DNA of 52,801 bases, from positions 1 through 52,801 of the IMG/VR virus record IMGVR_UViG_3300032322_002582; one strand, given 5' to 3'. Both the position numbers and the translations under genes were made by a program. The notes below the pieces were generated by a model, which ran no database searches, was not told the DNA's origin, and was given only the letters and a program-made list of their open reading frames with translations. This DNA comes from a virus. Taxonomy: Duplodnaviria > Caudoviricetes. Every line of letters begins with the position of its first letter. The first letter of the stretch is position 1. Below, piece after piece: positions 48,815 through 52,352 of this stretch.

Positions 48815-49375
48815 ATGGCAGTTTCTGACACACAAAAAATCGATTTACTTTTTAAAAAATTATTTGGTGTTTCCAAAACGGACACAGCAACAAATAAGAG
48901 TCCAAGTAATGAATCAATTTTAAGCCCTCAATTAAATAGAGGGGATAAGATATGGACAAGATCAACAGAAATTCCTTTAATCGCAGCGGAAATTTCAGGA
49001 ATCACACAATCTTATCAGGGAACATCCAGAGTTCAGTGTGTAGCCGATACAACATCAAATCCGATAAATGGTGTTTATCCTACATGGAAAACGCAATTAG
49101 CTGACTGGATACCACCAGAATTTGGTTCAGGTTATTTTGTGAAAGTGTACGTTGATTCTTCCGGTGCAGTTAATCCTGCATCGACAGGCACTCAATTATT
49201 CGATTCAGGTACAGCAGGTGTTGGAGAGTGGCATTTTGATTATCAGGCTGGTATTTTAAATTTCATAGGCAATACGATTCCCCCTTCTTTGACTACAAAT
49301 AAAGTAATTATGGTAATGGGTTACAGATATGTTGGTGAAGTAGGACTAAAAACTGTTTATGGCGGCACTTTCTAA
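48815..49375 (+). CDS. Putative virion protein ending in GGTF
   Basis: 186-aa ORF abutting the previous gene. Confidence 0.75.
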   Translation: MAVSDTQKIDLLFKKLFGVSKTDTATNKSPSNESILSPQLNRGDKIWTRSTEIPLIAAEISGITQSYQGTSRVQCVADTTSNPINGVYPTWKTQLADWIPPEFGSGYFVKVYVDSSGAVNPASTGTQLFDSGTAGVGEWHFDYQAGILNFIGNTIPPSLTTNKVIMVMGYRYVGEVGLKTVYGGTF

Positions 49376-49379
49376 AAGT

Positions 49380-49387
49380 TATAAATA
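49380..49387 (+). promoter_or_regulatory. T4 late promoter TATAAATA
   Basis: Exact consensus in the intergenic gap before 49417. Confidence 0.85.
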
Positions 49388-49416
49388 TAAAAAAGCATTA
49401 ATCTAAAGGAAATAAA

Positions 49417-51054
49417 ATGGCAAACACAGTCATTCAGCTAAAGTATTCTAATGTTACATCACAACCTCCTACGTTAAATGTATCTGAACCAGCATACTCT
49501 AGTGTTTCAGGAAAACTGTGGATTGATGATGGAACAGGTGTCGTAGCGATTGGCGGTAAACATTATACAGAAATACTTGATAATGCAACATCTGCCGCCA
49601 CTGGCAATACTCTGGTCAGAAGAGATTCGACAGGAAATGCCACATTTAATTACATTACTGCCGTAAATATTATTGGTTCAATCGCTGGTAACGCACAAAC
49701 TGCTACAAAATTAGAAACAGCCAGATACATTAACATTTCTGGTGATGGTACTGGATCATCCATTTTTGATGGATCGGCGAATGCTGATATTACATTTGAT
49801 CTTTCTTCTACTGGAGTTGCCGCTGGTACTTATGGCGGAACAACTAGCATTCCAGTATTTACTGTTGATGATGAAGGTCGTTTAAGCTATGCTGCGAATG
49901 TAAGTGTTGCGACAACTTTAACGGTTAATGCGGATTCTGGTACTAATACAATTAACTTATTGACGGATACTTTAACAATTGTTGGTGGTGATGGTATTAC
50001 CACTTCAATTAATCCAACAGATAGTGTAACAATTGGTGTCGATAATACAGTCATTAGAACAACTGGTAATCAAACAATTACTGGTGATTTTACACTGAAT
50101 GGTAACTTAATAGTTCAAGGTAATACAACTACAATTTCTGTCGATACAATCGCGATTGAAGATGCTATTGTTCTTTACGCAAATAATAATACAGGAAATT
50201 CAGTTGACATAGGTTTTGTTGCTCATTATGTTGAAGGTGGAACAACAAAACATACTGGCCTTGTTAAAAACGTTGCATCAAATACATGGTATCTGTTTGA
50301 TAACTATGTGGCTCATGTACAAGTAGATCATGTATTAAATATCGCTGATCCAACTTTAGTTACTGCAAATCTTATTGCAAATCTAACAGGCGGTAAAGTA
50401 ACGAATCTTACTCAAGACATATCCGTGTCTGATGGTGGTACTGGACAAAGTTCATTTACATCGGGTGCAATACTTATAGGTAATGGATCAGGCGCACTAC
50501 AAGAACTATCAAATGTAACTTATACATTAACTGGTGGTCTTTCTGCTGCTAATACTATAACATCACTGACTGTTGATGCTTATGGTAGAGTTTCTGCTGC
50601 AACCGGTGGTTCGATAGCTATCGATACAAATCAAATAACTTCTGGTATTTTATCACTTGGTCGAGGCGGTACAAATAATGATGCATATAATGTTGGTCAA
50701 CTAATACATTTCGATGGAACAAAACTATCATCGTTAGCTAACACTGGCACAGCAGGAACGTATGCTAATGCATCTCATGTTCCTGTAATTACAACTGATG
50801 CTTACGGTCGTGTAAGTGCCATAACTAATACAGCTATCGCAATAGACGCCTCACAAGTAACATCAGGAACATTAGGTGTCGCTAGAGGTGGTACAGGATC
50901 ATCTACCTTCACGATTAAGGGTGTTATAGTTTCGGACACATCATCTTCAACGGGTGCATTGACATCATTGACATCTTCAACGGAAGGACATGTATTACAA
51001 ATCAATTCTTCAGGAGCACCCACTTTCGCTCATATAAATGGCGGAACATTCTAA
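49417..51054 (+). CDS. Tail fibre-like protein ending in GGTF
   Basis: N-terminal IQLK.S...P..L...E.A domain; AGTYG...VD..GR and RGGTG fibre repeats. Confidence 0.85.
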   Translation: MANTVIQLKYSNVTSQPPTLNVSEPAYSSVSGKLWIDDGTGVVAIGGKHYTEILDNATSAATGNTLVRRDSTGNATFNYITAVNIIGSIAGNAQTATKLETARYINISGDGTGSSIFDGSANADITFDLSSTGVAAGTYGGTTSIPVFTVDDEGRLSYAANVSVATTLTVNADSGTNTINLLTDTLTIVGGDGITTSINPTDSVTIGVDNTVIRTTGNQTITGDFTLNGNLIVQGNTTTISVDTIAIEDAIVLYANNNTGNSVDIGFVAHYVEGGTTKHTGLVKNVASNTWYLFDNYVAHVQVDHVLNIADPTLVTANLIANLTGGKVTNLTQDISVSDGGTGQSSFTSGAILIGNGSGALQELSNVTYTLTGGLSAANTITSLTVDAYGRVSAATGGSIAIDTNQITSGILSLGRGGTNNDAYNVGQLIHFDGTKLSSLANTGTAGTYANASHVPVITTDAYGRVSAITNTAIAIDASQVTSGTLGVARGGTGSSTFTIKGVIVSDTSSSTGALTSLTSSTEGHVLQINSSGAPTFAHINGGTF

Positions 51055-51076
51055 ATCATTTTGAAAGGAGTTTATT

Positions 51077-51748
51077 ATGGATGTGAAGTTGCAAAATACA
51101 TATGTACAAGTTTTGCTTGACAATTTTATATCGGTTGTCAAGCAAAACATTTTATTTCAAGCTCAGATGGAAGTTACTAAATCTGAGACTAATGAAGCTA
51201 ATGATATAAAGAGAAAAATTGCTGAACTTTCAACTCGTAATGAAGAATTACAAAAGGTTGTTTCTGCAAAAGATCAATTATTATCGGAAAAAGAAAGAGC
51301 GATTGTAACTTTAAATAGTGAAAAGTCTGCTCTATTGAATAATTCTGCTGCTGAAAGAGAAAGAGCATTGACTAATCTATCTTCAGAGAAAGATAGAATG
51401 ATTAATTCCCTGACTGTTGAACGTGATAATCTAGTAAAAGACATTCAACAAAAAGAGAATCAAATTTCTAGCATGAGTAATTTTGGTCAAGAAAAAACAA
51501 GATTGCAACAGGCTGTAAATGATTACATGAGGCAGCTAAATGAGACAAAAAGTGAAGTATTGAAAATAAAAAGTGAATCGCAAGATGTTCTTATCAGAAA
51601 TAACACCCGTATTGATGAGCTAACTAAATATATTTCAAAGCTTGAAGCTATTGTACCTGCTTCCAAGTTGAAAAAAGTTAAGTTAGGCGAAGAGGTATCT
51701 CAAACGGAAACTCCAGATGATGGTGTTAGATCTGGAGGAACATTCTAA
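51077..51748 (+). CDS. Long coiled-coil protein ending in GGTF
   Basis: AAGGAG RBS; E/K/Q-rich heptads over most of its length. Confidence 0.85.
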   Translation: MDVKLQNTYVQVLLDNFISVVKQNILFQAQMEVTKSETNEANDIKRKIAELSTRNEELQKVVSAKDQLLSEKERAIVTLNSEKSALLNNSAAERERALTNLSSEKDRMINSLTVERDNLVKDIQQKENQISSMSNFGQEKTRLQQAVNDYMRQLNETKSEVLKIKSESQDVLIRNNTRIDELTKYISKLEAIVPASKLKKVKLGEEVSQTETPDDGVRSGGTF

Positions 51749-51758
51749 GATTCACTAG

Positions 51759-52352
51759 ATGGCCAATACGATAATTCAATTAAAACATTCTGGTGCGACA
51801 GGTAATGTTCCCCAACAATTGCAACCAGGAGAACTTGCCATCAATGTTTATGATGGCAAGTTGTTTTATGGAAATTTAACCAATCACATAATAGAATTCT
51901 CTCCCTCTAGTAATCCTTCGGGTTTAGATGGTGAGATACAATTTAATGATCTCGGTGAATTTGGTGCATCTGATAAATTATCTTTCAATAAAACCACAGG
52001 CCAATTAAGTGTAGGTGGTTCTGTATCGATCAATACAAATGTTGTAATGGAGTCAACATCAATAGTAACTTCTTCTTTGTCACAAGTTACTTTCGATTCT
52101 TGGTCTTCTTCCTCTTATAGATCCGCAAAATATTTGGTACAAATGAGTAGTGGTTCGGAATATCATATGATAGAATTATTATTAATACATGATAATACAA
52201 CTGTTCATATGTCCCAGTATGGTGAAGTGAAAACTGGCAACTCTTTAGGAACATTTGATGCTTCCATAACAACAGGAACGTTGAGTTTGTTGTTTACACC
52301 CACAAACTCATCGACTACTATTAAGGGTTCAATTGTTTTGATTCCTTCATAA
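51759..52352 (+). CDS. Short fibre-like virion protein
   Basis: MANTIIQLKHS...P..L..GELAIN..DGKLFY; G.IQFN..G.F; YRSAKYLVQ C-terminal domain. Confidence 0.82.
   Translation: MANTIIQLKHSGATGNVPQQLQPGELAINVYDGKLFYGNLTNHIIEFSPSSNPSGLDGEIQFNDLGEFGASDKLSFNKTTGQLSVGGSVSINTNVVMESTSIVTSSLSQVTFDSWSSSSYRSAKYLVQMSSGSEYHMIELLLIHDNTTVHMSQYGEVKTGNSLGTFDASITTGTLSLLFTPTNSSTTIKGSIVLIPS

Follow-up and report, generated by a model that had tools for sequence, protein, structure and literature searches.

Candidate tail-to-head joints between fibre segments of a T4-like phage contig, and their likeness to the gp36-gp37 joint of T4

Introduction

Tail fibres set which cells a phage attaches to, and most fibre genes in metagenomes are unannotated. 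In the closest described system, the distal half-fibre of phage T4, trimeric gp36 is reported to bind the N-terminal region of gp37 first during assembly (PMC3004832). The distal rod has been modelled as (gp36)3-(gp37)3, and the readable text of that study treats the junction without a residue-level account (10.64898/2026.03.06.709160). The T4 gp36 sequence ends in ..VQDFGYY, and gp37 begins 9 nucleotides (nt) further on. A second system that bears on the question is Mtd of phage BPP-1 (our locus L278, 3438-6125), where bbp9 ends in ..ADLGGIA* (the asterisk marking the stop) directly before mtd; the solved structures (1YU0 and others) contain Mtd without a partner, so that no joint is visible in them. 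Here we analyse the fibre genes of a 52.8-kb contig from IMG/VR (virus record IMGVR_UViG_3300032322_002582, all 52,801 nt of which are called the window below). Between 46.6 and 52.4 kb it carries a recurrent C-terminal ending, GGTF, here called the tail, and a recurrent N-terminal domain beginning MANTxIQLKxS, here called the head. The original prediction, made from the letters of the window, held that the tail of one protein docks on the head of another as a plug does in a socket.

Results

Three consecutive genes on the + strand of the window, P1, P2 and P3, encode proteins that end in GGTF, and P2 and P4 encode proteins that share the MANTxIQLKxS start. These genes and P0, which lies upstream of them, are listed here with their joint elements (lengths in amino acids, aa).

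46604-48814, + strand: P0, a 736-aa fibre protein with a phrog_8578 C-terminal domain
48815-49375, + strand: P1, 186 aa, phrog_9417
49346-49372, + strand: tail of P1 (putative plug), LKTVYGGTF-COOH
49417-51054, + strand: P2, a 545-aa fibre segment with both head and tail, matching tail-fibre PHROGs
49417-49566, + strand: head of P2 (putative socket), A type (..LNVSEPAYS..), about 50 aa; residues 1-64 match the hidden Markov model of the head at E = 1.6e-25, P2 being itself a row of that profile
50887-51051, + strand: C-terminal module of P2, ..GGTGSSTF..SGAPTFAHINGGTF, with the second tail at its end
51077-51748, + strand: P3, 223 aa, coiled-coil-like, with a GGTF tail
51725-51745, + strand: tail of P3, GVRSGGTF-COOH
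51759-52352, + strand: P4, 197 aa, with a B-type head, ending ..IVLIPS
51759-51908, + strand: head of P4, B type (GELAIN-type), residues 1 to about 50, MANTIIQLKHSGATGNVPQQLQPGELAINVYDGKLFYG

The three tails are written in differing codons, as had been noticed at the outset: P1 ends ..KTVYGGTF* (ggc ggc act ttc, 49361-49372; gene end 49375), P2 ends ..AHINGGTF* (ggc gga aca ttc, 51040-51051; gene end 51054) and P3 ends ..GVRSGGTF* (gga gga aca ttc, 51734-51745; gene end 51748). No further open reading frame (ORF) of at least 60 aa in the window ends in GGTF. The chance of GGTF at one fixed 4-mer is p = 1.7e-5, and that of at least 3 such ends among 56 non-nested ORFs is 1.3e-10; that any three consecutive proteins should share their last four residues has a chance of about 1.7e-8. 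In homologues of P1, P2 and P3 at about 67% identity in IMG/VR loci the ending is conserved as GG[TSN]F, or as G[GS][ST]F, and the tail consensus is h-x-G-G-x-F-COOH, more generally [IV]-[DN]-[G/F/Y]-G-x-[F/Y/L]. All four Gly codons are in use among 89 distinct GGxF tails, and GGAGG is present in 1 of the 45 tails with a gap of over 12 nt to the next start, against 15 of the 44 with a gap of 12 nt or less, the gaps from tail to next start ranging from -8 to 97 nt. Because all Gly codons are used and GGAGG is rare at the longer gaps, the constraint is on the protein rather than on a ribosome-binding site; a Shine-Dalgarno explanation is rejected on the same two grounds, and the initial view that selection acts on the peptide is borne out.

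The proteins that carry the tails had been described as a globular protein, a fibre and a coiled coil. By Pfam and PHROGs P1, P2 and P3 are indeed mutually unrelated, and P2 matches tail fibres. In an AlphaFold2 (AF2) monomer model P1 has a beta-rich core (residues 62-174; predicted local distance difference test, pLDDT, about 80-89) flanked by residues 1-60 and 175-186 at pLDDT below 50, so that the tail, which falls in 175-186, is unstructured in the model; a Foldseek search of the PDB with this model gave no match at E<=0.001, and neither P1 nor P4 has a Pfam family. P3 has a conserved N-terminus, then a long stretch that is helical or coiled-coil-like, and a charged linker (about residues 191-215) before the tail. 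Its composition is consistent with a coiled coil (residues 30-190 hold no Pro and one Gly, with a crude heptad count of 4-6 of 8 positions); a Pfam match to KASH_CCD (E = 1.1e-3) falls below the cut-off, and searches of PHROGs and Pfam gave P3 no family, a chaperone family included. By blastn the sole match of the whole region is 98 bases long, and in IMG/VR 28 loci were found with P1 as query.

The P2 protein starts MANTVIQLKYS and the P4 protein MANTIIQLKHS, and each gene directly follows one that ends in GGTF, P2 having both modules, all as first noted. The head consensus, M-A-N-T-x-I-Q-L-K-x-S ... P ... L ... GE ... N ... D-G-K-L-[FY], covers about 45 residues. Both proteins are themselves rows of the head profile, and none of the remaining 118 of the 120 window ORFs of at least 60 aa matches it at E<=1; homologues of P2 and P4 at about 67% identity keep the head. 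A profile of 22 heads compared with T4 gp37 1-80 matches residues 6-51 over 42 columns (hhalign 96.4%, E = 1.2e-9), and P4 residues 6-48 match phrog_1699 and phrog_35830 (long tail fibre distal subunit) weakly. By profile comparison, then, the IQLK head and the N-terminus of T4 gp37 are homologous. Searches of Pfam with P2, P4 and the isolated P4 head found no model of this domain. In an AF2 monomer model of P4 1-110, residues 5-50 form four strands at pLDDT 86-93.

In T4 and six further T4-like phages, the latter chosen from a spread list of 30 of 1491 records, gp36 ends in D[FY]G[YTS][YF] directly before a gp37-type head in all seven. The ends are DFGYY in T4 and PYPS2T, DFGTY in two Klebsiella phages and CC31, DYGSF in Acinetobacter phage Konradin and DFGTF in ECD7. 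The end of gp36 in ECD7, ..AVIDFGTF, is one residue apart from ..AVIDGGTF in L022, one of the IMG/VR loci. The window tails YGGTF, NGGTF and SGGTF were counted as fitting the upstream-end pattern [DN]-x-G-x-aromatic-COOH, a motif too short for a statistical test of homology.

Tails and heads are neighbours across IMG/VR in both directions. A scan with a DNA pattern for MANTxIQLK gave at least 119 stretches, which with the earlier loci made at least 147 matches and at least 115 distinct head/upstream pairs; an upstream ORF was counted if it had at least 50 aa and ended within 200 nt, as in 112 of the 115 pairs. Among these 112 listed matches the upstream protein ends in F in 109 (GGxF in 95, GxxF in 4, DDxF in 4, xDDF in 4, another F-ending in 2) and in another residue in 3, which are an inserted gene in L091, a 50-aa ORF of doubtful reality and a head cut by the locus edge. 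Conversely, a scan for IDGGTF-TAA that made no requirement of a head gave at least 120 stretches with at least 121 distinct sites, and a head was called where an ORF within 150 nt had an N-terminus matching the head profile at E<=1e-3. The 121 sites listed are followed by a gp37-N-type head in 79 cases and by an Mtd_N-type head in 2; in 6 there is no downstream ORF. As a background, 131 of the 3088 ORFs in the IDGGTF loci listed carry a head, these 79 included. Clustered at 70% identity, the 79 heads make up 47 groups; the proteins upstream of them, 54-3412 aa long, make up 30 groups at 50%. Among the matches listed, a head comes next after 119 of the 147 GGxF proteins that have none themselves. 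Of the co-occurrence that the original prediction had named as a check, adjacency within these loci speaks for it both ways (95 of 112 and 79 of 121 among the matches listed). Among cultured phages, tblastn with the 64-aa P4 head found 8 records only; in the three of these that were examined, all from outside the T4 group (Synechococcus myovirus S-B05, Synechococcus phage S-CBS2 and a Ralstonia phage) ..IDGGTF* precedes the head in each, and S-B05 has a 79-aa coil-like gene with the end ..DGGTFE between its fibre gene and its head gene.

A separate observation at these gene borders concerns genes with a GIY-YIG-like N-terminus, each placed precisely at the border of a GGxF-tailed gene with the fibre gene after it (L042, about 4547-5182, - strand; also L091, L118 and L135). 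By the motifs of their N-termini (..KYGFIY[IL]W[FY]D.. and ..YY[IV]G[KSR]H..) they may be homing endonuclease genes; in L091 the gene is inserted between an adaptor ending ..NGGSF and the head.

Tail subtype follows head subtype. Relatives of P3 have a coil, a K/E-rich linker of variable length and a GGxF or DDxF/DDF end, and DDxF/DDF tails occur only before B-type (GELAIN-type) heads among the matches listed. Tail position -6 is I or V before A-type (..EPAYS..) heads and E or K before B-type heads, which is covariation at the level of families and may be inherited. Residue-level covariation of head and tail was dropped as a claim, since mutual information separates the A-type and B-type families only. 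In L058 a P2-type tail stands directly before a head with no coil gene between, and the coil genes of L013 and L022 lack the tail. Within one such P2-coil-P4 triad, a 684-aa gene that is not fibre-like (L040 4892-6946) is inserted between a 70-aa coil gene ending ..STDTF and the headed fibre gene.

A second pair of endings occurs in relatives of the window, where a P4-type protein ends in D[YLFC]G.. (DYGTL, DLGYLT, DFGYVA) and is followed by an Mtd_N-headed protein. Such an end precedes 29 of 29 distinct Mtd_N-type heads in the loci (L005, L007, L012, L038 and others) among the matches listed; the head of P5 in L007 matches PF18454 at E = 1.8e-14. Within one lineage the two pairs keep apart among the matches listed: a D[YFL]G-type tail stands upstream of 0 of 112 MANTxIQLK heads, and GGxF before 0 of 29 Mtd_N heads. 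In other lineages IDGGTF does precede Mtd_N-like heads. The IQLK head profile aligns with Mtd_N heads over 37 columns (hhalign 78.6%, E = 1.7e-5), which is no more than suggestive of remote homology; Mtd_N heads aligned with the T4 gp37 N-terminus give an hhalign probability of 3%. P2, P4 and the isolated P4 head gave no match to PF18454. A third pair, ..LIPS-COOH with MASxQDFIVKNG heads, was rejected, since the loci contain 11 heads of this kind and the genes before them do not end alike.

The modules that the tails and heads separate also occur as single chains. A 520-aa protein of L013 joins a region matching P1 1-184 (blastp, 61% identity, E = 3e-80) to one matching P2 75-396 (35%, E = 1e-49) and has a P2-like end; the tail of P1 and the head of P2 are both gone, and the chain is continuous. 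The C-terminal module of P2 closes this fusion and also closes the P1 homologue of L022. At the other end of the cluster, residues 2-69 of P0 are an adaptor module (41% identity to residues 3-70 of a small protein of L003; blastp, E = 9e-17). In L003 and L007 this adaptor is a separate protein of 71-82 aa that ends ..VNGGSF and is followed by a P0 with a MANTLIQLK head; residues 144-736 of the window P0 share 51% identity with residues 317-925 of P0 in L007 (blastp), so that the window P0 fuses adaptor and P0 body without tail or head. In distant relatives a P1 homologue forms the N-terminal domain of fibres of 340-2970 aa. On account of the L013 and P0 fusions and of the P1 domain on long fibres, tail plus head take the place of a peptide bond that would join these modules.

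Two loci contain proteins of 65 aa, L030 (1708-1905) and L070 (811-1008, - strand orientation), that have a head (MANTTIQILRSY..), a ..VDGG[TS]F tail and little else. Each lies behind a 77-aa protein ending ..DAGYF and ahead of another head, and they look like minimal couplers.

The P3-P4 joint was modelled with three P4 heads (residues 1-100) and three P3 C-termini (80 aa). The complex scored 0.45 (runs 0.43, 0.47 and 0.45), against 0.02 for the best control; the runs share at least 38% of contacts, and the pLDDT of the partners is at least 52. In calibration, 58 of 80 solved complexes reached that mark, as did 2 of 110 mismatched pairs; at scores of 0.60 or lower it was attained by only 7 of those 80 and by both passing mismatches; the P3-P4 runs, unlike the calibration, used custom alignments and 3+3 copies. 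Multimer prediction, which had been proposed as a check, gave a score above the controls for the P3 C-terminus with the P4 head without yielding a confident interface, 0.45 being graded weak.

The remaining observations concern the neighbourhood of these genes. The window has 35% G+C and derives from a T4-like myovirus: T4-type baseplate genes at 22-41 kb (tail tube cap, hub with lysozyme, wedge subunits; PHROGs) are followed by very long fibre-like proteins, one with a Peptidase_S74 chaperone domain. This is the 1642-aa fibre protein of 41334-46262, which has many tandem ANTNMK[NS]YVD[VT] repeats and repeated ..SGLAGSATTDTRNADNI.. units, with the C-terminal Peptidase_S74 intramolecular chaperone domain at E = 2.2e-15; a match to Apolipoprotein is spurious. 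In relatives, two or three paralogous genes of about 280-330 aa, glycine-rich with ..EYLVVAGGGGG.., lie upstream of the fibre cluster (L010 663-3238, L013 2866-4620, L007 149-3030), and those of L010 end ..GTITF, ..GSITF and ..GSVTF.

P0 (end ..TALSL[EQ][ST]A[SN]N) and P1 (MAVSDTQK..) are adjacent in all P1-bearing loci, their stop and start abutting or overlapping (48811-48818 in the window). This border may hold another, different joint, the first 60 residues of P1 being conserved yet of low pLDDT.

from 52383 (52383-52799 in the window), + strand: gene after P4, open-ended, with a TTG start, MASQKDFIVKNG..

The chain as we read it ends at P4, because the MASQKDFIVKNG fibre start of this next gene has no consistent upstream tail. 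In the near-identical contig L001 (10332-13406) the same gene encodes 913 aa with the end ..HPFLLIGV, and a gene of 110 aa comes next; ends of the kind ..PFLL.G., each followed by a gene of about 110 aa, are also present in L030, and L051 and L087 have the same ..PFLL.G. end.

Discussion

We conclude, with a probability of about three in four, that the genes at 46.6-52.4 kb encode segments of a multi-part fibre on the tail of a T4-like myovirus, and that these are held together non-covalently by a tail-head joint. According to this model the C-terminal tail of the upstream protein would dock on the four-stranded head, of about 45 residues, of the next protein. The joint would be used at least twice in the window, from P1 to P2 and from P3 to P4, with a third use in relatives, from the small adaptor to P0. 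The segments would be trimers and components of the virion, arranged in the order P1-P2-(P3)-P4 with P1 as the base module of the chain, and the trimer of heads would grip the tail peptide itself, which would likely add a strand and lodge its terminal Phe in a pocket. With less certainty, P3 is probably a spacer or tether of coiled-coil type, its flexible linker leading to the plug for P4; it may act as a spacer in the chain, as a brace at the P2-P4 joint or as an assembly factor. The tail of P2 either has a second kind of partner or is free. The plug-and-socket idea thus draws support from the homology to gp37, the two-way adjacency and the natural fusions, and less from the weakly predicted complex; the binding itself we infer.

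Several points weigh against this model. The GGTF tail of P2 is followed by P3 and not by a head, which leaves the window with three tails and two heads, and among the matches listed a coil-like gene follows head-bearing GGxF proteins in 52 of 61 cases. The MANTxIQLK sample is confined by construction to close variants of the head. No head is detectable downstream of 34 of the 121 IDGGTF sites listed; by eye, a P3-like coil gene comes next at about 9 of these and a divergent head at a few, the rest being followed by unrelated genes or possibly being chance matches. The score of the P3-P4 complex counts as weak support, and no interface was returned. A PDB sequence search with the head profile gave chance matches only (E>=0.015), no solved structure having the head, and Foldseek found no fold match in the PDB for the P4 1-110 model at E<=0.001. 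P1, P2 and P3 have no match to PF03903 at E<=0.1 (T4 gp36: 9.6e-53) and so are not homologues of gp36, and homology of a tail of 4-6 residues is beyond statistical proof.

Tails and heads might instead be independent end-caps, each closing or nucleating its own trimer, that co-occur at segment boundaries while the segments touch through other surfaces. Both motifs do lie at chain ends of presumably trimeric fibres, fusions would be expected too if they were merely end structures, and the complex scores only weakly. However, the P3 tail is separated from the coil by a charged linker of about 30 residues and variable length, a poor site for a cap; the 65-aa proteins of L030 and L070 have little beyond head and tail to be capped; and tail subtype tracks head subtype, both in the restriction of DDxF/DDF to B-type heads and at position -6. 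In addition, gp36 is reported to bind the N-terminal region of gp37 (PMC3004832). We regard end-caps as unlikely.

Somewhat less probable again is that the tail serves only during assembly, as a handle for a chaperone-like factor that recognises either tails or heads, perhaps P3 with its plug holding three P4 chains, with no contact between tail and head in the mature fibre. T4 fibre assembly does use small helical chaperones such as gp57A. Small coiled-coil-like genes of the P3 type are wedged between two fibre genes in the 52 of 61 listed cases given above, and the P3 homologues of L013 and L022 have no tail. Against this, the tail is also present on the structural segments P1 and P2, on small adaptors and on proteins of up to 3412 aa, the fusions argue for a permanent connection, and P3 matches no chaperone family. 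A nucleotide-level constraint on the shared ending (ribosome-binding site or translational coupling), for which the frequency of GGAGG within 12 nt of the next start might speak, can be dismissed along with chance (about 1e-8 to 1e-10), given the scarcity of GGAGG at longer gaps, the use of all Gly codons and the spread of gaps.

More tentatively, and at slightly less than an even chance, the joint may be an instance of a portable connector code, in which a plug of about six residues, [IV]-[DN]-[G/F/Y]-G-x-[F/Y/L]-COOH, pairs with a socket of about 45 residues from a gp37-N/Mtd_N superfamily. If this were true, gene ends alone would reveal in which order a fibre is assembled and possibly where it branches, and fission, fusion and 65-aa couplers would be the way in which these fibres are rebuilt in evolution. 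Plug and socket would let annotators assign neighbouring genes to one fibre and put them in order, and would explain gain and loss of segments by fission and fusion. They also point to a natural, modular way of joining trimeric proteins. In the openly readable literature, as far as the main texts go (including PMC12143355 and 10.64898/2026.05.12.724579), we found no description of the C-terminal tail motif, its pairing rules, its breadth or the gp36-gp37 interface at the level of residues. For the junction of gp36 and gp37 in T4, described at the protein level only in the readable parts of the T4 literature, the model offers a hypothesis at the level of residues.

Three known systems invite comparison. 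Bacterial SSB proteins carry an acidic tip in which a flexible linker leads to a few conserved residues with a terminal Phe and a free carboxylate. P3 and the DDxF/DDF variants resemble it in layout and may work in a like way, protein and function being unrelated. The Mtd_N (PF18454) proteins, with BPP-1 Mtd, are alike in presenting a second class of head behind a gene with a short conserved C-terminal end; they differ in that the heads of the window miss PF18454 and that the part of the window seen has no Mtd_N gene. The nearest likeness is to gp36 and gp37 of T4, where the head is homologous to gp37 6-51, the upstream end is a very similar peptide, and the genes are adjacent and in the same order. 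Because P1, P2 and P3 are not homologues of gp36, it is only the joint elements, the last few residues, that they have in common with it. The second position of the tail is Gly here and Phe or Tyr in gp36, a gene cluster here has two to four such joints where T4 has one, and the carriers here include a coiled-coil protein with a flexible linker and couplers of 65 aa. The joint is thus a multiplied variant of the T4 gp36-gp37 joint, and its principle is not new in kind.

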